Source: Lachnospiraceae bacterium (GTDB taxonomy: Bacteria > Bacillota > Clostridia > Lachnospirales > Lachnospiraceae). From it: 64,000 nt of DNA. The DNA lies in NCBI GenBank assembly GCA_017613435.1, contig JAGADU010000078.1, forward strand, positions 1,725-65,724, given 5' to 3'. Positions 5,539 to 18,217 of this stretch are shown here, piece by piece. The notes below the pieces were generated by a model. It saw nothing but the letters and a program-made list of their open reading frames with translations, ran no database searches and was not told the DNA's origin. Made by a program: the position numbers and the translations under genes. Within the stretch, counting starts at the first letter, position 1; the number at the start of each line of letters is the position of its first letter.

Positions 5539-6231
5539 TTATTTTGCTTCTTCCTTTTCAAGGAACATATGAACTCCCGCCGCAAGAGCCGCGCCGGCCA
5601 AAGGTCCCACGATGAAAATCCAAAGAACCTTTATGGGTTCGGGATTGCCGGCAATTGCCGAAACAAGAGCAGGTCCGAAACTTCTCGCGGGGTTAACGCT
5701 TGTTCCGGTAAGTCCGATACCGAAGATATGGATTAGAACAAGTGTAAGACCGATGATAAGTCCGCCAAAAGACCCGTGATTTCCCTTCTTTCCGGTAACG
5801 CCGAGAATTACAAGAACGAAAACAAATGTTAAAATCACTTCAACGATAAGTCCCGTGATAATGCTTCCGTTAACTCCGGCAAGACCGTTGGATCCGAATC
5901 CTCCCGTGGCATCTTCGATTTCCGCAACACCGAAAATCAAAGCGAGGATTCCGCCGCCCAACCATGCACCGAGGCACTGGGCAAGAACATATAATCCGAA
6001 ATCTTTTCCGCTCATTCCCTTGTTCATGAATACGGCAAGGGAAACCGCAGGGTTGATGTGACAACCCGAAACATTGCCCACGCAATAAGCCATTCCGACA
6101 ATTACCAGACCGAATGCCAAAGCGGTAAGCAAATAGCCGTCCCAATGCTCACAACCAGTAAGCATTGCCGTTCCGCAACCGAAGGTTACGAGAACACATG
6201 TACCGATTAATTCCGCAATAAATTTCTTCAT
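5539..6231 (-). CDS. MIP-family aquaporin (AqpZ-like)
   Basis: SGCHINPAVS and SVNPARS NPA motifs; GAGG RBS before MKKFIAE. Confidence 0.92.
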   Translation of the reverse strand: MKKFIAELIGTCVLVTFGCGTAMLTGCEHWDGYLLTALAFGLVIVGMAYCVGNVSGCHINPAVSLAVFMNKGMSGKDFGLYVLAQCLGAWLGGGILALIFGVAEIEDATGGFGSNGLAGVNGSIITGLIVEVILTFVFVLVILGVTGKKGNHGSFGGLIIGLTLVLIHIFGIGLTGTSVNPARSFGPALVSAIAGNPEPIKVLWIFIVGPLAGAALAAGVHMFLEKEEAK

Positions 6232-6287
6232 AGAATCCCTCCTCTTTATATATAAAACCCGCCGGACAGGCGGTATTTTAAACATAA

Positions 6288-6497
6288 TCAGTCTTTGACA
6301 TCGACCGCTTCGGGAAGTTTCCCTTTTTTCCTGAATTTTGCTTTAATCGAATCAAGAATGTTTTCGGGAAGAGAAAAAACTTTCTCAATCAGAAAATCGA
6401 GCGTTTTTTCGACAAAATGAAAAATAATTCTGCTTAAAACAAACACAAATACAAACGGAGCAATCGCACAAAAAACGATAAATGTTAAAGTAATCAT
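6288..6497 (-). CDS. Small hypothetical membrane protein (69 aa)
   Basis: AAAGGAGG RBS 5 nt before ATG; hydrophobic N-terminus. Confidence 0.6.
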   Translation of the reverse strand: MITLTFIVFCAIAPFVFVFVLSRIIFHFVEKTLDFLIEKVFSLPENILDSIKAKFRKKGKLPEAVDVKD

Positions 6498-6596
6498 GCA
6501 CGCCTCCTTTAATTGTTTTTAATCAAATACAAATACGAATTTATTATACAACATATCGAAATTTTTAGCCACTAAGATTATGATTTGAAATTTATG

Positions 6597-6625
6597 TTCT
6601 ACAAAAGATAAAACTGTGCTATAAT
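6597..6625 (+). promoter_or_regulatory. Putative extended -10 promoter of the TM1266/nitrogenase-like/hyp operon
   Basis: TTCTAC-N17-TATAAT(6620-6625) preceded by TG. Confidence 0.55.
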
Positions 6626-6673
6626 TTATGTTCAGGGAAGACAATCCCAAAAAAATAAGGAACGGTAATTTGC

Positions 6674-6922
6674 ATGGAAACACGCGCTGCCGTTATTGCC
6701 ATAATAGTCAAAGACAACGAGTCGGCCAACGAGATCAATTCTCTTTTGCATGAATACCGCGATATCGTTATCGGGCGAATGGGCATTCCCTACAGAGAAA
6801 AAGGAATCAATATCATAAGCGTTGCGGTTGACGCACCTCAGGATACCGTCTCCACTCTGGCGGGAAAAATCGGAAGAATAAAAGGCGTTACGGCCAAAAC
6901 GGTTTATTCTCCCGTCGAATAA
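6674..6922 (+). CDS. TM1266-family 'iron-only hydrogenase system regulator' (ACT/ferredoxin-like fold)
   Basis: 82 aa; METRAAVIAIIV, INSLLHEY..IVIGRMGIPY, LAGKIGRIKGV family signature. Confidence 0.85.
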   Translation: METRAAVIAIIVKDNESANEINSLLHEYRDIVIGRMGIPYREKGINIISVAVDAPQDTVSTLAGKIGRIKGVTAKTVYSPVE

Positions 6923-6951
6923 CTTTCAAAACAAAATAAATCCAAAAAATT

Positions 6952-7045
6952 CTGACGTCGAAACCTGTATGGCAGCTTGAGATGAAAGCGTTTGCAAATA
7001 ATCTTTTTTATGATGCACTCTTTCTATGTCGGAAGGGTGTTTTTT
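6952..7045 (+). promoter_or_regulatory. Putative attenuator / cis-regulatory RNA (terminator plus antiterminator)
   Basis: Terminator stem GCACTCTTTC(7015-7024)/GGAAGGGTGT(7031-7040)+T run; CTGACGTCGAAA(6952-6963) can pair 11/12 (with G:U) with TTTCTATGTCGG(7021-7032). Confidence 0.6.
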
Positions 7046-7114
7046 ATTGGATTTATCCTTTGACGGTTCCCGTGTAACTTTGATTTTCGGCATTAACGAT
7101 TATAGGAAAAACAT

Positions 7115-7864
7115 ATGATTAAATTCGCAATTTACGGAAAAGGAGGGATCGGAAAATCCACCCTCTCTTCAAATCTGAGTGCGGCCTTTGTAAAGAAAGG
7201 CTTAAGAGTCATGCAGATAGGGTGCGATCCCAAAGCGGATTCCACTTCTCTTTTGTGTCCGAAAGAAAAAATAACTTCCGTACTCGATCTGGTAAGAAGT
7301 TCTAAACCCTTTACTCTTCAGGACATGGTAAAAGAGAGCGAATCCAAAGTGTTCTGCGTCGAAGCGGGCGGTCCCGTACCCGGGCTCGGATGTGCGGGAA
7401 GAGGCATCATAAACGCACTCGAATCTCTTGAAAACAAGGGCGCATACGATTATTACAAACCGGACGTGGTTATCTACGACGTACTCGGAGACGTCGTCTG
7501 CGGCGGTTTTACGATGCCCATGAGAAAAGGATTTGCGGATAAGGTGTATATTGTGACATCGGGCGAAAAAATGTCCGTATACGCAGCCGCAAATATCGCG
7601 ATGGCAATCGAAAATTTCAAAAAAAGAGATTACGCCAAACTCGGCGGAATTATTTTAAACTGCAGGGGTGTCGAAAACGAACTCGAAAATGTCGAAACCC
7701 TCGTTAATGACTTTAACACCAAGCTTTCGGCCGTAATTCCCAGAAGCCCTCTTTTCGCCGAAGCCGAAGCGAAAGGAAAAACAATTGTTGAACTTTTCCC
7801 CGAAAGCGATGTATGCAAATCCCTTCTGGAACTTGCCGACAGTATTATCGAAGATTTTAAATAA
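7115..7864 (+). CDS. Nitrogenase-like iron protein 1 (NifH/BchL/CfbC family)
   Basis: [45 protein letters not shown]; both [4Fe-4S] Cys present. Confidence 0.92.
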
Positions 7865-7867
7865 AAT

Positions 7868-9214
7868 ATGTTAAAACAGATTTCTTTAAACGAAAACAAA
7901 ATACCCGAAGGCGTCAGAATTTCCGAAATTGATTTTGACAATCCTTTTTACGACGGACTCCATTACAACCCTCCCGCAAGAGGAGTATGGAATATCGTCC
8001 ATACCGGCATGCTCATTCCCGAAGCGCATCAGATATACGTTTGTGCCCAGGGGTGTCTTCGCGGTGTAATTTTAACCGCCGCGGAAATGAATCGCATGGA
8101 AAACATGAGCTGGGTCGCACTTCGCGAAAAGGACATGTGGAACGGCGAAATGGAATCGAGAGTAATCGAGGGCTGTTCACATATCGTGGACGAAATGGAA
8201 AAACACCCCAAATGCATTCTTGTTTATTTAAGCTGCATGCATTTGTTCGAAGGATGCGATTTTAAAGTAATCGCCGCCGAACTTGAAGAAAGATATCCCG
8301 ACATCGACTGGGTTGACTGCTACATGACCCCCACGATGCGAAAAACTTTCGAACCCGATGTCATGATGAAAAAAAGCCTCTATTCTCCGATCAAAAAACT
8401 TGATTGCGACGAAAAATACATCGGTCTTATCGGGTGCGACCGCGCCACGGATAAAACTTCGGAAATTTATTCGCTCTTAAAAGAAGCAGGCTGCAAAATG
8501 TGGGAGATAACCGAATGCAAAACTTACGAAGATTACCTCTCACTCGGAAAGGCTTCTCTTCTTATCTCCTATCTTCCCGTTGTCGGTTACGCTTCGTCCG
8601 ATCTGACCAAGAGACTGGGCATAGCGCATCTTCCGATGGATTTAAGTTACGATAAAGATGAAATAACTGCCAATCTTAATGCTTTTGCATCTTCTTTGGG
8701 TCTTGACGAAAAAACCGTCGAAAAAATTACGGATATAACAAAAAAAGAAGCCGACGACTCCATGAAAAGAGCTTTGGAGACCATCGGCTCTTCTCCCATA
8801 GCAATCGATGCTTCCGCAACACCCAGACCCATCGGTCTCGCATTGCTTTTAACCGAATACGGATTTAACGTTAAGCGCGTATATACGGATGCTTTCAACA
8901 AAAAAGAAAGAAATGCTTTTGAAAAGTTATGTAAACTAAATCCCGACATCGAGATCTATCCTTCCATGGATCCTTTAATGTTAAATGCCGATCTTGAAAC
9001 AAAAATCGGAGAATCCGAATATTTGTGCATCGGACAAAAAAGCGCATATTTTTGCCAGACAGGAAAATTCGTAAACATCATCGAAGGCGGCGGAATGTAC
9101 GGCTTTGACGGAATAAGGCATCTTGGCGAAATGATGACGGATGCATTTTTAAACGAAAAAGATTTGAAATTAACCATATCATACAAAGGATTGGAGTGTG
9201 AAAGCTGCCTATGA
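7868..9214 (+). CDS. Nitrogenase component 1-like oxidoreductase, subunit A1
   Basis: YVCAQGC, YLSCMHLFEGCD, C-terminal GMYGFDGIRHL; follows NifH-like gene. Confidence 0.8.
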   Translation: MLKQISLNENKIPEGVRISEIDFDNPFYDGLHYNPPARGVWNIVHTGMLIPEAHQIYVCAQGCLRGVILTAAEMNRMENMSWVALREKDMWNGEMESRVIEGCSHIVDEMEKHPKCILVYLSCMHLFEGCDFKVIAAELEERYPDIDWVDCYMTPTMRKTFEPDVMMKKSLYSPIKKLDCDEKYIGLIGCDRATDKTSEIYSLLKEAGCKMWEITECKTYEDYLSLGKASLLISYLPVVGYASSDLTKRLGIAHLPMDLSYDKDEITANLNAFASSLGLDEKTVEKITDITKKEADDSMKRALETIGSSPIAIDASATPRPIGLALLLTEYGFNVKRVYTDAFNKKERNAFEKLCKLNPDIEIYPSMDPLMLNADLETKIGESEYLCIGQKSAYFCQTGKFVNIIEGGGMYGFDGIRHLGEMMTDAFLNEKDLKLTISYKGLECESCL

Positions 9215-10347
9215 ATCAGACCGCAAGAATCATTTCGATATATGCCGCGGATACATCGGGCGTTTGCTCCGCTTTGTACGAATACGGCGGAATGACCGTT
9301 ATTCATGATGCGTCCGGCTGCAATTCCACATATACGACCCATGACGAACCCAGATGGTATGACAAAAAGAGCATGATGTTCATTTCGGGTCTTACCGAAA
9401 AAGACGCCGTAATGGGAAACGATGACAAATTCATTGACGACCTTGTTATAGCCGCAAACGAATTAAAACCCGCGTTCATCGCTCTTTGCGCTTCCCCTCT
9501 TCCCGCCATGATAGGAACGGATCTTGATGCCATTGCATATGCGGTTGAAAGCGAAACTGATATTCCGTCTTTTTGCGTAAAAACAAACGGAATGAATTCG
9601 TATATTTACGGAGCCGGGAATGCATTCCTTGATTTGGCCAAAAGGTTTATCGATAAAAACATGTCCCATAAAACGGACAGATTAAAAGTAAATCTTCTCG
9701 GACTGACTCCTCTGGATTTCCCAAAGACCGAATACGTTAATTCCTTAAAATCCTTCATAAAAGAATCCGGAATGGAATTAAACGCTTCAATCGGAATGGA
9801 GACATCGCTTATTGACATACAAAAAATCGCCGATGCCGATGTCAACCTGATTCTTTCTTCGTCGGGAAAACTTCTGGCGGATTATCTTTTCGAAGAATAC
9901 AACATTCCTTTCGTCAAAGGCGTACCCTACGGAATAAAATTCAGCGAACATATTAAAGAATGCCTTTATAAAGCGGGTGCGGAGAAAATCAATATCGATG
10001 CCACAAAATCATTAAGAGAAGAAGGAAGTACCGCAATACTCGGAGAAAGCATTCTCTCCGCTTCTCTTGCAAGTGCCGTTCTTTCGGATTACGGAATCAA
10101 AGCAAATGTTTTGGAGACGGTCGGCGACGGGGATTTCGATGTTTTAAAGCCTTTTGATTTATCCTGCGACGACGAAAAAATACTTGAAGGCGAGCTTGAA
10201 AAATACGAATGCATCATAGGCGATCCTTTGTTTAAACCGATATGCAAAAACAAAAAATTCATCGCACTTCCCCACGAAGCATTCTCGGGAAGGTGTTTTA
10301 CGAAGAACGCACCGAATATGATAAACAGAAAAATAGAAATATTTTAA
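9211..10347 (+). CDS. Nitrogenase component 1-like oxidoreductase, subunit B1
   Basis: [30 protein letters not shown]; ATGA overlap with A1. Confidence 0.8.
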
Positions 10348-10372
10348 AATATTTTTTCAAACGGAGACACAC

Positions 10373-11140
10373 ATGATTAAGATAGCTGTTTACGGAAAAG
10401 GCGGCATAGGCAAATCGACCGTCACTTCCAATCTTTCGGCCGCATTGGCGCATCTTGGAAAAAGAGTCATACAGATAGGCTGCGATCCCAAAGCGGATTC
10501 AACCGCCAATCTTTTATCCGGAAATCCCGTATTTCCCGTTATGAATTACATGAGGGATTTTGACAGGGAACCCGAATCACTTGAAGAAATTTCAAAGGTC
10601 GGATTCGGAAACGTGCTTTGCATCGAAACCGGCGGACCCACTCCGGGACTCGGCTGTGCCGGAAGGGGCATCATTACAACTTTCTCTCTTCTTGAAGAAC
10701 TGAATCTTTTTGAAAAATACAAACCCGACGCCGTTCTGTACGACGTACTCGGAGACGTTGTCTGCGGAGGATTTGCGGCGCCCATAAGAGAAGGTCTCGC
10801 AAGCAAGGTCATAATCGTAACCTCCGGCGAAAAGATGGCTCTTTATGCGGCAAACAACATAAACAGTGCCGTGGAGAATTTCAGGGAAAGAAGTTATGCA
10901 AGCGTAAGGGGAATCGTTTTTAACAGAAGAAATGTTTTAAACGAGGAAGAAAAAGTTTTTGAATTCGCCAAAAGCCGCAATCTCGAAATAATAGCGGATA
11001 TCCCGAGAAGCGATGACATCATCCGTTTCGAAGACGAGGGAAAAACCGTAATCGAGGGCGATCCGACTCTTGACGTGAGCAAACGTTTTCTCGACCTTGC
11101 ATCGCTTCTTATCGAGGAAGACGAAAAAGAAAACAATTAA
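10373..11140 (+). CDS. Nitrogenase-like iron protein 2 (NifH/BchL/CfbC family)
   Basis: [48 protein letters not shown]. Confidence 0.92.
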
Positions 11141-11154
11141 TTAAAGGATTATTA

Positions 11155-12432
11155 ATGAGCAAAGCTTTTTATCAGACAGCCAAAGAAATAATACAAAACG
11201 GATATGATTCTCTGACTGCGGAACAGGTTTCCAATAAGCATTTGATTTACTCGTCTCCCGCAACACTCTCCTTTAACTCGCCCGGAGCCAAAGGATACGG
11301 TGTAAAACGTGCGGGCCTTGCGGTACCCGAATCCGTAATGCTTCTCGTTTCGCCTTCATGCTGCGGAAGAAACACATCGCTTTTTAAAAGTTCGCCGGAA
11401 TATAAAAGCCGTTTCTTTTTCCAGCTTCTTGACGATACCGACATCGTTACCGGCAGACATTTGATGAAAATAAACGATGCATGCGGCGAAATTCTCTCAT
11501 CTCTTGAAAAAAGACCTTCGGCGATAATGATATGCATAACATGCGTTGACGCTCTTCTCGGTACGGATATGGAGCGAATCTGCCGAAAAGTCACAGAAAC
11601 TCATTCAATTCCCTGCGTTGCATGTTATATGTATGCCTTGACGAGGGAAAAAAGGCTCTCTCCCATGGCTTACGTAAGAACAAGCGTATATTCTCTTTTG
11701 GAAAAGCAAAAAAGAGAAAGCAAAGACATGAACATAATGGGATTTTTCTCTCCCTTAAACGATCGAAGCGAGATTTATCCTCTTTTGAAAAATGCGGGAA
11801 TCGAAAACATCAGGGAACTTGCAAGATGCAAAAAATTCGAGGATTACAAAGAGCTTTCGAAGGCGAATTTCAATCTTTTGCTTAATCCGGAAGCCCGGCA
11901 TGCGGCACAGGATATGCAAAAGCGTTTAAACATTCCTTTTATCGAAATGCTAAGGCTCTATAGGATTGACAAAATACACAATCAATATATGCTTTTGGGC
12001 AATGCTCTCGGAATAAATATCGACGATCGAAAATATTACGAAGAAGCCGAAAAAAGAATTGCCGATTTTAAAAACAAATACGGCGAAATCAGATTTGCTG
12101 TCGGCGAAATATTAAACGGCGATGCGATTGAAATCGCATTAATGCTCGCAAAAGAAGGTTTCAGGGTTGAATGCGTTTTCGCAACGATCGGAGAACTTAA
12201 TTACAGATTCCTAAAAACCCTTTCGGAAGTAAGTCCCGAAACAAAAATTTATTCCAATCTGTCTCCGACGATGCTTAATTACGAAAAAGACGATATCGAC
12301 TGTTATATCGGTTCGGACTGTCTCTATTATTTCCCAGACAAACCGGGTATCGAATGGTGTGAAGAAACCGAGCCCTTCGGGTATCGCGGCGTAATCGATT
12401 TGTTTGATGCATTGGATAAAGTATTGAGGTAA
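11155..12432 (+). CDS. Nitrogenase component 1-like oxidoreductase, subunit A2
   Basis: VSPSCCGR, LDDTDIVTG, ITCVDALLGTD, C-terminal PFGYRGV. Confidence 0.8.
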   Translation: MSKAFYQTAKEIIQNGYDSLTAEQVSNKHLIYSSPATLSFNSPGAKGYGVKRAGLAVPESVMLLVSPSCCGRNTSLFKSSPEYKSRFFFQLLDDTDIVTGRHLMKINDACGEILSSLEKRPSAIMICITCVDALLGTDMERICRKVTETHSIPCVACYMYALTREKRLSPMAYVRTSVYSLLEKQKRESKDMNIMGFFSPLNDRSEIYPLLKNAGIENIRELARCKKFEDYKELSKANFNLLLNPEARHAAQDMQKRLNIPFIEMLRLYRIDKIHNQYMLLGNALGINIDDRKYYEEAEKRIADFKNKYGEIRFAVGEILNGDAIEIALMLAKEGFRVECVFATIGELNYRFLKTLSEVSPETKIYSNLSPTMLNYEKDDIDCYIGSDCLYYFPDKPGIEWCEETEPFGYRGVIDLFDALDKVLR

Positions 12433-12436
12433 TTGC

Positions 12437-13480
12437 ATGAAAAAATTCTTGAAATATATGTCTCCTTTTGCACCGGATCAATCGGGCGCATGCGGTGTCT
12501 TTTACGAACTCGGGGGTCTTATCGTAATCTGCGATGCGGGCGGATGCGCGGGTAATATCTGCGGATTCGACGAACCCAGATGGTTTGACAAAAAAAGCGC
12601 CGTCTTCTCTGCGGGATTAAGAGATATGGACGCAATCATGGGAAGGGATGACAAACTGATTGAAAAACTCTCGACGGCATATGAGCAATTAGGCGGAAAT
12701 TTTGCGCTCATCGTTTCAACACCCGTTCCCGCGATTATCGCAACAGATCTTCGTTCTCTTGAGATAATGGGCGAAAAAAAGCTTGGAATCCCCTGCATTG
12801 CACTCGATTCGACCGGAACAAATTATTACGACTCGGGCGAGGAAAAAGCCTGGTTAAGACTTTTTGAGACTTTTGCGAAAGAATCTTTCGAAAAAATCGA
12901 GAAAAAAACAGCAATTATCGGTGCCACTCCGATTGAAACGGGATTTAAAAACGCCGATTCGCTGAAAAAAATGTCGGAAGAATGTGGTTTACATAATGTA
13001 ACAATCTATTCCATGGGAAGTACTCTCGAAGACGTTAAAAAGGCTTCGGAATGCGAAAAAAACATTGTTATATCGCCTGCGGGATTAAAAGCAGCAAATT
13101 TTCTTAAAAACAAATTCGGCATTCCTTATGAAATCTCATATCCTTTTATCCCGAAGGACATTGTCGAAGAGGCAAAAAAATATTCCGGCAAAAACATACT
13201 CATCATTCATTCGCAGTTTGCCGCTAACGAATTAAGAAAAGAAATCGGATGCATAGAGAAAATAAAATGTGCGACGTTTTTCTTGCAGGATAGGGATTAT
13301 TCTCTTCCCGGAGATATTAAATTAAACGGCGAAGACGATCTTTTCGAATCCGTAAAAAACCAAAATTTCGATCTTATTATCGCCGATTCCGATACCCTGC
13401 CCCTTTTAAAAGCGGCGGGCTTTGACAAAGATTTTATCGACTATCCGGAATTTGCGCTATCGGGAAGAATTTTCGATTAA
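12437..13480 (+). CDS. Nitrogenase component 1-like oxidoreductase, subunit B2
   Basis: ICDAGGC, SAGLRDMDAIMG, STPVPAIIATD; clear paralog of 9211-10347. Confidence 0.8.
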   Translation: MKKFLKYMSPFAPDQSGACGVFYELGGLIVICDAGGCAGNICGFDEPRWFDKKSAVFSAGLRDMDAIMGRDDKLIEKLSTAYEQLGGNFALIVSTPVPAIIATDLRSLEIMGEKKLGIPCIALDSTGTNYYDSGEEKAWLRLFETFAKESFEKIEKKTAIIGATPIETGFKNADSLKKMSEECGLHNVTIYSMGSTLEDVKKASECEKNIVISPAGLKAANFLKNKFGIPYEISYPFIPKDIVEEAKKYSGKNILIIHSQFAANELRKEIGCIEKIKCATFFLQDRDYSLPGDIKLNGEDDLFESVKNQNFDLIIADSDTLPLLKAAGFDKDFIDYPEFALSGRIFD

Positions 13481-13510
13481 ATCCGACAAATTATAATTTG
13501 GAGAAACATT

Positions 13511-15889
13511 TTGAAAACATGTGTAATAAGAGTGTACGGTATCGTTCAGGGCGTCGGTTTTCGCCCCTTTGTAAGCCGCACATGTCTTGACAACAATATA
13601 AAAGGGAGTGTGGCAAACAAAGGCTCCTATGTCGAAATTCACGCACAGGGCGAATCGCTTGAACCTCTGTTTGACGCCTTATCCCACAACCCTCCCAAAA
13701 GATCCGTAATCCTCGAAATAATACATACTTTTGAGGATGAGGATGCGTACGATTCTTTTGAAATCATCGAAAGCGAAAAGGAAGAAGGAGACATATTCGT
13801 ATCCCCCGATATCGCCATATGCGAAGAATGCAAAAAGGAATTGTACACGCCGGGCGACAAAAGATATCTGCATCCTTTTATCAATTGCACGAATTGCGGT
13901 CCTAGACTGACCATACTCGATTCAATGCCCTACGATCGCGAAAGAACAAGCATGGGCGAATTCGAAATGTGCGATTATTGCAAAAACGAATACATCTCCC
14001 CCGCTTCAAGAAGATATGACGCGCAACCCGTATGCTGTAACGAATGCGGACCGAGCTTTTATCTTTTTGACAAAGATATTCTTAAAAACCCCGATTATCT
14101 GTCCCGTAAAAAGGACGCCTTATACAATTCGGATTCTTCGTTATCGGATTTTGCGAAAGCAATCGGAAGCGATGCGATAACAAAGGCAAGAGAATCGATA
14201 ATCGAAGGTAAAATAGTTGCAATAAAAGGCATCGGAGGTTTTCATCTTGCATGCGATGCGACAAACGAAGAAGCCGTAGGGCGCCTTCGAATGTTAAAAA
14301 AGAGACCTATGAAACCCTTCGCCGTAATGATGGATTCCCTCGATACGATCAAAACGTATTGCAAAGCAAACGAATCGCAAAAAGAATTGCTTACCGGTCA
14401 TCAAAAACCGATTGTATTGTTAAAAAAGAAGGATGAAAACGATTTGAAAAAACCGCTTGCACCCTCTCTTGCACCGGACAATCCGACACTCGGAGTAATG
14501 CTTCCGTATGCGCCGATTCAGCTTCTTTTGTTCGATTACAACGACAATTTGAATATGCCGCGCGCCCTTGTCATGACTTCCGGAAACGCATCCGGCGCAC
14601 CGATTTGCAGAACGGACGAGGATGCTTTAAACGAGATATCATCCTTTGCGGATTATATTCTTTCCAACAACAGAAAAATACGTTTAAGGTGCGACGATAC
14701 CGTAACGGACTTTTTCGAAGATAAACCCTACATGATAAGAAGGTCCAGAGGATTCGCGCCCCTTCCCGTAATGATTTCATCCAAAAACAAAGGATGTGTT
14801 TTGGCAATCGGCGGTGAATTGAAAAACACTTTCTGCATAGCAAAAGATTCAATGTTCTATCCTTCGGCATATATCGGAGACATGGAAGATTTGCGAAGTG
14901 TCGATGCATTAAAAGCATCAATCGTTCGTATGGAAACGCTTCTTGAAGCAAAGCCATCGCTGATTGTTTGCGACATGCATCCTCTCTATCACACGACCGA
15001 GGTTGCAAAAGGTATAAATCTCCCTCTTTTGACCGTTCAGCACCACTATGCGCATATTCTTTCGTGCATGGCGGAAAACGATTACCTTGATGACGTAATC
15101 GGGGTTTCGTTTGACGGAACGGGCTACGGAGAGGACGGCACGATATGGGGCGGCGAAATATTAAGATGCGGCCTCAAAGATTATGAAAGATTATCTTTTG
15201 TCGCGCCCTTCATACAATCGGGCGGAGATATTTCCGCAAAAGAAGGCTGGCGAATAGCGGCATCGATTTTAAGAGAAATATCCGATGAAGGTTTAAAAAT
15301 CGCACTTAATCTGAAACTTTGCGAGAAAGCCGAATTCGAATTTCTGGCGCAAATGGCCGAGAAGAACATAAACAGCGTTAAATCGACAAGCGCCGGAAGA
15401 CTCTTTGATGCCGTAAGCGCAATCCTTTCGATAAGACGCTCTTCGACTTTCGAAGGCGAAGCCTCGACATCACTCATGTTCGCCGCAATGCGTTTCGAGG
15501 AAAAAAGCAAAGAAAAATCGGTTGATATCTTTTCCGATTTAGAACCGATAAAAGGAAATGTTTTAAATACAAACGAGCTTGTTTTAAGAATAGCCAAAGC
15601 ATATCTTGAAGGCGAAGACAAAGATTTTCTTGCATATGCGTTCCATGATGAGCTCTCTTCGATGATTGCTCTAAAATGCAGTCTTTGTTCCAAGGAAACA
15701 GGCATTAAAACCATCGCTTTAAGCGGCGGCGTATATCAAAACATTCTTCTTTTGAAACTTACAAAAAGAAAGCTGAAAGAATACGGATTGAATGTGATTC
15801 ACCATAACCTCATTCCTCCCAATGACGGGGGAATCGCCCTCGGGCAGGCGCTCTACGGTTTGTCGCATTTAAACGAAGATTTAAATTAG
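13511..15889 (+). CDS. hypF: Carbamoyltransferase HypF
   Basis: Acylphosphatase GIVQGVGFRPFV, two CxxC..CxxC zinc fingers, KGIGGFHL, QHHYAH, DGTGYG, NDGGIALGQ; TTG start with GGAG RBS. Confidence 0.96.
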   Translation: MKTCVIRVYGIVQGVGFRPFVSRTCLDNNIKGSVANKGSYVEIHAQGESLEPLFDALSHNPPKRSVILEIIHTFEDEDAYDSFEIIESEKEEGDIFVSPDIAICEECKKELYTPGDKRYLHPFINCTNCGPRLTILDSMPYDRERTSMGEFEMCDYCKNEYISPASRRYDAQPVCCNECGPSFYLFDKDILKNPDYLSRKKDALYNSDSSLSDFAKAIGSDAITKARESIIEGKIVAIKGIGGFHLACDATNEEAVGRLRMLKKRPMKPFAVMMDSLDTIKTYCKANESQKELLTGHQKPIVLLKKKDENDLKKPLAPSLAPDNPTLGVMLPYAPIQLLLFDYNDNLNMPRALVMTSGNASGAPICRTDEDALNEISSFADYILSNNRKIRLRCDDTVTDFFEDKPYMIRRSRGFAPLPVMISSKNKGCVLAIGGELKNTFCIAKDSMFYPSAYIGDMEDLRSVDALKASIVRMETLLEAKPSLIVCDMHPLYHTTEVAKGINLPLLTVQHHYAHILSCMAENDYLDDVIGVSFDGTGYGEDGTIWGGEILRCGLKDYERLSFVAPFIQSGGDISAKEGWRIAASILREISDEGLKIALNLKLCEKAEFEFLAQMAEKNINSVKSTSAGRLFDAVSAILSIRRSSTFEGEASTSLMFAAMRFEEKSKEKSVDIFSDLEPIKGNVLNTNELVLRIAKAYLEGEDKDFLAYAFHDELSSMIALKCSLCSKETGIKTIALSGGVYQNILLLKLTKRKLKEYGLNVIHHNLIPPNDGGIALGQALYGLSHLNEDLN

Positions 15890-15902
15890 GAGGATTATAA
15901 AT

Positions 15903-16115
15903 ATGTGTGTAGGTTTACCCGCAAGAGTCGTAAGCGTTAATGACGGTACGGCCATTATCGATGCAAACGGCGCAAAAAGAGACGTTCGCGCGGAACTTCT
16001 CGACGATCTCGAACCCGGCGATTACGTAATGGTTCACGCCGGCGTTGCCATCGCAAAAATCAATTCCGATGACGAAAGCGAAGGAAGCGAAGTCATGGGA
16101 CTTTTATCAATTTAA
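15903..16115 (+). CDS. hypC: HypC/HybG/HupF chaperone
   Basis: N-terminal MCVGLP, GDYVMVHAGVAI; AGGAGG RBS. Confidence 0.95.
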   Translation: MCVGLPARVVSVNDGTAIIDANGAKRDVRAELLDDLEPGDYVMVHAGVAIAKINSDDESEGSEVMGLLSI

Positions 16116-16136
16116 TCTTAAGAACGGAAAATAATC

Positions 16137-17183
16137 ATGAACGAAGTAATAGAAAAAGCCAGAGAAATAATTACGGGGTATGACGGTCCGAAAGTCAGAA
16201 TAATGGAAGTCTGCGGTACCCATACCCATGAAATATTCAGACAGGGAATAAGAAGCCTCCTGCCCGAAAACATCGATTTGATCTCGGGTCCGGGTTGTCC
16301 GGTTTGCGTAACGCCCGTCGGATTTATCGATGAAGCGATTTTCCTTGCAACCGAAAAGAACTGCCTTATTACCACTTTCGGAGATCTTATCAAAGTTCCC
16401 GGAACCGAAATGAATCTCGCAAAAGCCAGAGCAAACGGTGCAAAAATCCGTCCCGTTTACTCTCCCGACGATGCGGTTGAACTCGCAAGGGAAAATCCTG
16501 ACGAAGACGTTGTTTTTCTTTCCGTGGGATTCGAAACCACAACTCCTTCATCCTGCCTTGCGGTCAAAAAAGCAAAAGAACTTAATTTAAATAATTTCTC
16601 TATCCTTACCGCCAACAAATCGATGCCAAACGCCTATCTTAAATTAAAAGGAAGCGCCGACGCATTTATATATCCCGGTCATGTAAATGCAATAACCGGT
16701 AATGCGGTATGCAAAAGCCTTAAAGACAAAGGCGTATCCGGAGTTGTTGCGGGCTTTACCGCAACCGAACTTATGAGTGCGCTTGCCGTTACAATCGAAA
16801 TGTTAAAAAAGGGCGAGCCATTCTTTGTAAACTGTTATCCCAGAGTGGTTAAAGACGAAGGAAACCCTGCGGCAATTAAGCTTATGGACGAAGTAATGGA
16901 ACTTTGCGATACCCAGTGGAGAGGGCTTGGAATTATCGAAAAATCCGGTATGAAATTAAAGGAAGAATTTGCCGATTTCGATTCGAGAATAAAATACAAT
17001 ATTCCGGCAATCGAAGGAAAGCCCAATCCCGGATGCAGATGCGGCGAAGTTTTACAGGGTCACTGCAAACCTTCCGACTGCCCCCTTTTCGGAAAAATAT
17101 GCACTCCCCTTCATGCAATAGGAGCATGCATGGTATCCGATGAAGGCGCATGTTCGGCTTATTATCAATACAATCAAATGTAA
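16137..17183 (+). CDS. hypD: Hydrogenase formation protein HypD
   Basis: MEVCGTHT, GPGCPVC, GFETT, PGHV, C-terminal CRCG..CPLFG.ICTP..GACMVSDEGAC. Confidence 0.96.
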   Translation: MNEVIEKAREIITGYDGPKVRIMEVCGTHTHEIFRQGIRSLLPENIDLISGPGCPVCVTPVGFIDEAIFLATEKNCLITTFGDLIKVPGTEMNLAKARANGAKIRPVYSPDDAVELARENPDEDVVFLSVGFETTTPSSCLAVKKAKELNLNNFSILTANKSMPNAYLKLKGSADAFIYPGHVNAITGNAVCKSLKDKGVSGVVAGFTATELMSALAVTIEMLKKGEPFFVNCYPRVVKDEGNPAAIKLMDEVMELCDTQWRGLGIIEKSGMKLKEEFADFDSRIKYNIPAIEGKPNPGCRCGEVLQGHCKPSDCPLFGKICTPLHAIGACMVSDEGACSAYYQYNQM

Positions 17184-17212
17184 GAAGACAAAAATAAGAA
17201 AGGTATAATCAT

Positions 17213-18217
17213 ATGGAAAACATTATCACTTTGGCTCACGGGTCGGGAAGCATTCAGACTTCGGAACTTATCGACAGCATATTCAAATCGAATTTTGACA
17301 ATCCGTATTTAACCGCCGACGATGCTGCCGTTTTATCTCTCGAAGAAGGAAAAATCGCCATGTCCACCGACGGCTTTATAGTTTCTCCTTACGAATTTCC
17401 CGGGGGAAATATCGGAAAGCTCGCCATCTGCGGCAGCGTAAACGATATAGCATGCATGGGAGCAAAACCCAAATACCTTACATGCTCTTACATTATCGAA
17501 GAAGGTTTTCCCGTTGAAGAACTCGAAAAAATCGCAAAATCCATGGGCGAAACCGCAAGAAAAGCCGGAATACTTATTGTTGCGGGAGATACGAAAGTCG
17601 CAGGCAAAGGTCAGGTAGATAAAATATTTATCACTACAACCGCCGTCGGAAATATTGTCGATGGCGTCAATACATCGGGATCTTTCGCAAAACCCGGGGA
17701 TAAAATCATCGTATCGGGCGATATCGGAAGACACGGCTGCACGATTCTTCTTGCAAGAGGAGAATTCAATATAGATGCGGACATAACAAGCGACTGCGCA
17801 CCGTTATGGAGCAATATAGAAGCGGTATTTAACGAAACAAAGGATATTCATGTAATAAGAGATGCGACAAGGGGCGGTGTCGGAACCGTTCTTTACGAAA
17901 TAGCAAAACAAAGTAACGTCGGAATTTCCATAAACCACGAATCGATTCCCATCGATCCCGGTGTAAAGGGAGTATGCTCGATGTTGGGACTTGAACCCCT
18001 GTATCTGGCATGCGAAGGAAGACTCGTATTCTTCGCACCCGCCGAGGTTGCGGATAAAGTATTAAATGCGTTAAGAGCGTGCGAAAATTCAACAAATGCA
18101 GCAATCATCGGAGAAGTTACCGGGGACAATGTCGGAAAAGTAATACTCAATACGGCGGTAGGCGCCAAAACGATTCTCTCCCGTCCGAGCGGAGAACTGC
18201 TTCCGAGAATATGTTAA
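17213..18217 (+). CDS. hypE: Carbamoyl dehydratase HypE
   Basis: LAHGSG, FPGGNIGKLA, RDATRGG, C-terminal PRIC. Confidence 0.96.
   Translation: MENIITLAHGSGSIQTSELIDSIFKSNFDNPYLTADDAAVLSLEEGKIAMSTDGFIVSPYEFPGGNIGKLAICGSVNDIACMGAKPKYLTCSYIIEEGFPVEELEKIAKSMGETARKAGILIVAGDTKVAGKGQVDKIFITTTAVGNIVDGVNTSGSFAKPGDKIIVSGDIGRHGCTILLARGEFNIDADITSDCAPLWSNIEAVFNETKDIHVIRDATRGGVGTVLYEIAKQSNVGISINHESIPIDPGVKGVCSMLGLEPLYLACEGRLVFFAPAEVADKVLNALRACENSTNAAIIGEVTGDNVGKVILNTAVGAKTILSRPSGELLPRIC

Follow-up and report, generated by a model that had tools for sequence, protein, structure and literature searches.

A gene for a small protein of the TM1266 family and a large nitrogenase-like operon follow one another on the same strand in the 64,000-nt stretch of Lachnospiraceae DNA analysed here (the window), and a gap of 192 nt separates the end of the TM1266 gene (6922) from the first start codon of the operon (7115). 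An earlier note on this DNA had placed a terminator in the gap, and proposed that it belongs to a terminator/antiterminator switch, possibly read by the TM1266 protein, rather than serving as a plain end of the TM1266 gene. TM1266 has carried the label "putative iron-only hydrogenase system regulator", ever since its structure appeared in 2006, and to our knowledge this label carries no mechanism. In a search of the literature we found neither this RNA nor a mechanism of TM1266 described, and no paper on the control of [FeFe]-hydrogenase maturase genes. What, then, does the gap do, which of its elements decides, and what might read it? The two alternative folds of the leader are mutually exclusive, and the gap is most likely a transcription on/off switch. 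Its putative sensor is a small irregular hairpin, P1, which turns up beside genes for TM1266 and hydrogenase maturases in many anaerobes, and the TM1266 protein is a candidate for the factor that binds it.

The leader and its alternative folds

The features of the locus are collected in Table 1. The operon runs in the order nifH-like 1, D-like, K-like, nifH-like 2, D-like, K-like, HypF, HypC, HypD and HypE. A promoter-like site ahead of the TM1266 gene would drive this gene and, by read-through, the leader, in which P1 begins 30 nt past the TM1266 gene end. HydE and HydF are encoded on other contigs of the source genome (84% complete), in which no HydG scored above the family cut-off. Contigs from RNA libraries, which cannot show transcript ends or levels, comprise two from bovine gut (one study) that span 6731-6973 and 6736-6957, and others, of sheep-gut relatives, that begin at about 7115; none bridges the terminator. 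Farther upstream, an inverted repeat that is rich in G+C and has T runs on either strand (6257-6273) resembles a bidirectional terminator and sits between a MIP-channel gene (5539-6285, minus strand) and a 69-codon open reading frame without a Pfam match (6288-6497, minus strand).

Table 1. Features of the TM1266-to-nifH-like gap and its surroundings (positions refer to the window unless a locus is named)
Feature	Position	Strand	Basis or remark
Promoter-like site (extended -10)	6598..6625	+	Consensus match only: 10/12, extended TG
TM1266-like gene (82 aa)	6674..6922	+	Pfam PF21699, E 1.8e-32; TIGR03959
P1, putative sensor hairpin (irregular, 37 nt)	6952..6988	+	RNAalifold consensus, covariation, covariance model
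Strand a, putative antiterminator strand mimicking the terminator 3' arm	6984..6995	+	Window folding, family-wide a:b test
Strand b, terminator 5' arm, partner of either a or c	7015..7024	+	Folding, ortholog alignment
Genus-specific anti-P1 element (inner 5' arm, loop, start of 3' arm)	7021..7034	+	Complementary to 6950-6963
Strand c (3' arm, 7031-7040) with T run	7031..7048	+	Folding, ortholog alignment
Putatively controlled operon	7115..18217	+	Pfam, NCBIfam
ABC ATPase-TM1266 fusion	L099:3323-4756	-	PF21699
ABC ATPase-TM1266 fusion	L103:1575-3002	+	PF21699

The earlier note described a 10-bp terminator stem with a T run, 70 nt before nifH-like 1, and this held on folding. Strands b and c form 10 pairs, three of them G-U (-11.7 kcal/mol), and the G+C-containing stem-loop is directly followed by T6-A-TT. 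The stem covaries among orthologs, an A-U pair being replaced by G-C in one of them (G019). The note also stated that 6952-6963 can pair with 7021-7032 at 11 of 12 positions, in a fold that excludes the terminator, and both points were borne out. The duplex includes two G-U pairs (-9.4 kcal/mol) and, when extended to 6950-6963 and 7021-7034, reaches -12.9 kcal/mol. When the upstream region was dinucleotide-shuffled, only 4 of 1000 versions did as well against this target; a looser test, in which the best duplex between the whole upstream region and the whole terminator was scored, was not significant (72/1000 shuffles).

The upstream partner of that duplex is itself one side of P1. This hairpin opens with the pairs C6952-G6988 and U6953-A6987, followed by a 2x2 internal loop (GA/AA), a 4-bp helix (6956-6959 with 6981-6984), a second 2x2 loop (GA/GA), two A-U pairs (6962-6963 with 6977-6978) and an apical stem (6965-6967 with 6973-6975). 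Its ends read CUGA on the 5' side and RAAG on the 3' side, and the 4-bp helix, which covaries, lies between the two purine-rich loops. The element CTG-tatgg-CAG, taken in the note for an incidental small hairpin, is actually the tip of this conserved structure. The apical stem, a new feature of this window's copy, also covaries (CUG/CAG versus CUC/GAG).

Strand a shares its first 5 nt with the 3' end of P1 and complements the 5' arm of the terminator. Most relatives have a stronger a:b helix than the window, where nine positions pair with 7015-7024 in blocks of 5, 2 and 2 pairs, with one mismatch and a 2-nt bulge. Because strand a starts within the 3' end of P1, a complete P1 would withhold part of a and leave b free for the terminator, and an open P1 would release a to form an antiterminator with b. 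As P1 is compatible with the terminator and overlaps strand a, stabilisation of P1 should favour termination. For the transcript 6948-7041, the calculated energies were -20.7 kcal/mol for the fold of the earlier note, -20.3 for P1 plus terminator, and -19.6 for the composite antiterminator. Since these three folds differ by only ~1 kcal/mol and a:b is weak in the window, it is the structural logic that gives the predicted direction of control.

The earlier note could not match the leader to the consensus of T-box, SAM-I, TPP, cobalamin or Moco, and a comparison with Rfam agreed. Rfam 15, searched at E values up to 10 over 6300-7400, gave best matches of 9-19 bits (E 1.4-8.8), where the thresholds are 40-50 bits, and none was relevant; one of these, L10_leader (15.7 bits), was merely the terminator. 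A scan of 18 related loci at the gathering thresholds found no family at the motif. Several other candidates were rejected. A kink-turn, the site of L7Ae/YbxF, consists of an asymmetric 3-nt bulge followed by tandem sheared G.A pairs, whereas both internal loops of P1 are symmetric 2x2 loops, and the likeness of CUGA to box D is superficial. A HutP- or TRAP-type site was set aside as well, there being no TAG in 6923-7045 and no spaced array of GAG triplets to be seen. Judged by eye, a sigma-54 promoter has the wrong spacing for -24/-12 elements, and a leader peptide would have to come from the leader's only open reading frame, of three codons.

Conservation and distribution of the motif

The arrangement of TM1266 gene, gap and nifH-like gene recurs in 12 genomes of the same genus, at 70-82% DNA identity, with P1 and the terminator kept; these are the two best-conserved blocks of the gap, far above the rest. 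Besides the 12 orthologs, a P1 covariance model found shorter and more divergent copies in the genus. Such copies precede hydG (G023), a TM1266-hydG pair (G014) and, in G027 and G015, a gene for an SsuA/NMT1-like binding protein, whose apparent operon takes in a same-strand TM1266 gene 2.4-3.3 kb further downstream. Their apical stem is absent or different, and their 4-bp helix is altered on both strands. In every one of these divergent copies, a strand a right after P1 complements the terminator 5' arm b, b pairs with c, and a T run follows. The letters of a, b and c are wholly different between lineages, and the complementarity of a:b and b:c is retained. Family-wide, cognate a:b duplexes have a mean of -11.4 kcal/mol versus -8.3 for non-cognate ones, and none of 2000 permutations was as low. 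In one ortholog (G012; L012:1880-2230, plus strand), a repetitive insert of ~330 nt that includes several near-repeats of 20-25 nt follows the terminator and precedes the nifH-like start. The source genome contains exactly one copy of P1 according to the covariance model, matched once in the window (model R2, 66.7 bits); neither the rest of the window nor the surroundings of HydE and HydF in the same genome showed a second copy.

As the earlier note had expected of a true switch, conservation and covariation in homologous loci were found, namely in P1, in the a:b pairing and in the terminator stem. Within the genus set, 100% of P1 cells are paired and 6 of 11 pairs show compensatory changes. 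In 89 distinct sequences, aligned by fitting to the model and mostly drawn from a pattern that fixes three of the helix pairs, 99.6% are paired and 8 of 11 pairs are compensatory. The helix occurs in seven versions, pairing being possible in every one, and the model-found copies contribute four versions outside the reach of the DNA pattern. The one helix pair that the pattern leaves free covaries (60 C-G, 7 U-A, 1 U-G and 2 C-A; Fisher p=2e-7, a value that overstates the case because related genomes are not independent). In the upper loop, G.A opposition occurs 42 times, A.C 15 times and A.A 13 times, and G-C never, which points to a fixed non-canonical geometry. By this comparison of sequences, P1 is the putative sensor of the switch and the sole element common to all relatives.

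A strict DNA pattern of the P1 core, run over one genome per prokaryote species, matched at least 119 genome stretches, with ~7.3 expected by chance. Among the matches listed, 81 instances were examined, of which 78 appear real and 3 look like chance matches in coding regions. Pattern matches L100, L118 and L157, which were coding-like or lacked a terminator, were set aside, and two model matches, L046 (from the search of the order) and L049, were false positives inside long open reading frames. A terminator lies within 260 nt of the motif in 76 of the 78 real instances. The matches listed are mostly from Clostridia (Lachnospiraceae, Oscillospiraceae, Ruminococcaceae, Acutalibacteraceae and Christensenellales), with others in Desulfovibrio, Flexilinea, two Lactobacillaceae and one Erysipelotrichia metagenome-assembled genome (MAG). 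Searches with models R1 and R2 gave one false match in 150 sampled genomes of the order and three matches in 150 sampled genomes of the class, figures that say little on distribution, given the strict filters and the bias of both models towards the long form.

Two variants of the hairpin were also seen. Tandem P1 hairpins occupy one leader in L088:4186-4276 (minus strand) and in L137:6428-6514 (plus strand), the upstream copy having a fully different 4-bp helix (UAUG/CAUA). In G032 (L014:1501-1760, minus strand), a degenerate P1-like hairpin (CAUC..GAUG, with purine loops), which scored below the model threshold, lies upstream of a divergent TM1266 gene and directly abuts the ribosome-binding site; perhaps this variant acts on translation.

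The TM1266 protein and known attenuation systems

TM1266 is the first gene 3' of the motif in 57 of the 78 real instances. Elsewhere, the first gene encodes a NifH-like protein (7, one of them in a Ruminococcus MAG), HydE (4), a FecCD-type permease (4), HydF (3) or a binding protein (1), or the contig ends (2); HydG comes first in two model-found copies (L044 and L208). Nine further instances have the TM1266 gene upstream of the motif, as in the window, ending 50-70 nt before it, and in L089 the gene ends 347 nt upstream. The TM1266 gene stands beside the motif in 66 of the 78 instances. In all five cases where the motif locus lacked TM1266, the gene was present elsewhere in the genome; every motif-bearing genome tested has it, and in the window it is adjacent. 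Within the genus, 16 of the 28 genomes that encode TM1266 showed the motif, against none of the 15 that do not; the genomes counted are related and hence not independent, and the co-occurrence is in part trivial, since no gene is controlled more often than TM1266. The other 12 of the 28 showed no motif. In the 12 genus genomes that the model did not match, no P1 copy lies closer to TM1266 than 1.5 kb; the motif in G023, G027 and G015 is located more than 1.5 kb from TM1266.

The TM1266 protein of the window is a single NikR-C/ACT-type domain (model pLDDT 94). It shares the beta-alpha-beta-beta-alpha-beta fold of NikR C-terminal and ACT domains, with TM-scores of 0.85-0.87 to NikR C-domains, but differs from NikR in having no ribbon-helix-helix DNA-binding domain, and we know of no RNA-binding role in this fold family. 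Its sole solved relative is the uncharacterised PDB entry 2NZC (E 7e-14), which holds four chains. Counted from the alignment, the protein has no net positive charge. The FecCD-type importer operons controlled by the motif include an ABC ATPase with a C-terminal TM1266-like domain (PF21699, E 1e-17 to 1e-19; Table 1). The best-conserved motifs of TM1266, GRMGxPY and DAP, are retained in this fused copy, which marks the TM1266 domain as a ligand sensor. There, these motifs should bind a ligand, not RNA, and the presence of the domain on an ABC ATPase suggests that it senses the imported substrate.

The closest parallel is PyrR. In the pyr operon of Bacillus subtilis (RF00515), a protein-binding hairpin acts as an anti-antiterminator and is followed by an antiterminator and a terminator, so that binding favours termination; pyrR itself lies within the operon that it controls and has attenuators on both sides. 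The present system resembles this in its three-part leader, in the predicted coupling of binding to termination, and in having the regulator's gene in the controlled operon. Serial attenuators occur here, too: in L095:2329-2747 (minus strand), one motif precedes TM1266 and a second lies between TM1266 and a FecCD permease gene. However, the P1 leader matches RF00515 neither in sequence nor in structure, and the fold of the candidate protein is of the NikR-C/ACT rather than the phosphoribosyltransferase type. HutP of the B. subtilis hut operon, a small ligand-activated oligomer without a DNA-binding domain, binds spaced UAG triplets and prevents termination. The window has the same gene order, that is, a small regulator gene, an intergenic terminator with an RNA site, and structural genes, but its leader is devoid of TAG and its structural logic predicts that binding leads to termination. 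The link between the leader and TM1266 that the earlier note suggested is strongly backed by gene neighbourhood and co-occurrence, and the PyrR/TRAP-like logic that it invoked is the best fit; the binding of RNA by TM1266 is the part that we infer.

Rival readings and the proposed switch

It is extremely improbable that the gap is a plain terminator of the TM1266 gene and that the nitrogenase-like operon has its own promoter in 7046-7114. A strong intrinsic terminator 92 nt past the TM1266 stop codon would suit such an arrangement, but no promoter-like site was found between the terminator and the nifH-like start. This stretch is not conserved, and in G006-type orthologs only ~25 nt lie between the T run and the start codon, leaving no room for a promoter. 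Moreover, the P1/a/b/c module stands in the 5' leaders of at least 57 other loci with no upstream gene to terminate. The preference of the earlier note for a switch over a plain terminator is supported. Very improbable, too, is the strict two-state form of that switch, in which the pairing of 6952-6963 with 7021-7032 alone decides and the hairpins between are incidental. The pairing is real and unusual by the shuffling test, it belongs to the slightly most stable of the three folds, and the partner letters are kept in 10 of 12 orthologs. Nonetheless, no partner for the P1 5' strand is visible in G011 (L008), and its complement lies at a different place in G012 (L012) and G027, whereas G011 and G012 both retain P1 and a:b. 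Strong among members of the genus, the pairing reaches p<=0.05 in only 5 of 67 instances outside it, about the level of chance, whereas P1 and a:b are universal; the 5' strand is, in addition, constrained by P1 itself. As an antiterminator, the pairing is confined to this genus, and family-wide the antiterminator would be strand a with the terminator 5' arm. We read the former as a lineage-specific second antiterminator that compensates for an unusually weak a:b helix and captures the freed P1 5' strand and part of strand c. This anti-P1 element is new in this window.

P1 might also be a very small riboswitch aptamer, whose two purine loops bind a metabolite or metal ion (an iron species, for example, or an intermediate in the synthesis of Fe-CO/CN cofactors) under the same terminator logic, TM1266 being only the gene most often controlled. 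We consider this unlikely, though worth serious attention. The non-canonical loops are conserved, with substitutions of an isosteric type, the terminator/antiterminator platform is strict, the controlled genes (hydE/F/G, nif-like genes and importers) all belong to one pathway theme, and the tandem copies of L088 and L137 recall those of some cooperative riboswitches. However, the conserved core is a single hairpin of ~30 nt with no family-wide junction or pseudoknot, and its two-fold layout is a better fit for a symmetric protein. Most loci, moreover, encode beside the motif a regulator-like protein that has none of the known types of nucleic-acid-binding domain, and it occurs in every motif-bearing genome tested. 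That some other factor, either an RNA-binding protein or a processing nuclease, binds P1, with TM1266 acting on the maturases at the protein level only, appears quite improbable. The TM1266 domain, a candidate RNA binder, is also fused to an ABC ATPase and so can act through protein contacts, but the 78 loci show no consistent link of the motif with any other gene, and the motif was not found in the 15 genus genomes that lack TM1266.

Our preferred reading, to which we give a little better than an even chance, is that TM1266, a NikR-C/ACT-fold protein without a DNA-binding domain, binds P1 and thereby promotes termination, acting on the leader in the manner of PyrR or HutP. Transcription would run from the TM1266 promoter through the TM1266 gene into the ~190-nt leader. 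In the OFF state, a full P1 would hold the first 5 nt of strand a, the b:c stem (7015-7040, with its T run) would form, and RNA polymerase would stop before the nifH-like/Hyp operon. In the ON state, P1 would open and strand a would pair with the terminator 5' arm, allowing read-through; once freed, the P1 5' strand (6950-6963) would, in members of this genus, additionally pair with the terminator loop and 3' arm. The sensing step would consist of an effector-loaded TM1266 oligomer binding and stabilising P1. TM1266 would then act by attenuation under the control of a ligand, repressing its own gene, hydE/F/G, the FecCD-type importers and, here, the nitrogenase-like/Hyp operon.

A bolder form of this proposal, which we put forward tentatively and at somewhat less than an even chance, is that TM1266 may be the founding member of a new class of attenuation proteins, of NikR-C/ACT fold, whose binding to RNA is gated by a ligand. 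A symmetric oligomer would clamp both purine loops of P1 and set the expression of an Fe-CO/CN cofactor toolkit, made up of hydE/F/G, the double nitrogenase-like cassette with HypFCDE, and chelate-type importers that carry the same sensor domain on their ATPase.

The position of the motif in the window, downstream of TM1266 and at the head of a double nifHDK-like plus HypFCDE operon, is new, and the motif is a candidate for a new Rfam family. With a conserved RNA site and a terminator logic, TM1266 gets a directly testable role. The motif defines a regulon, which here reaches an uncharacterised double nitrogenase-like and HypFCDE operon, and this regulon ties an orphan nitrogenase-like enzyme system to the biosynthesis of H-cluster-type cofactors.
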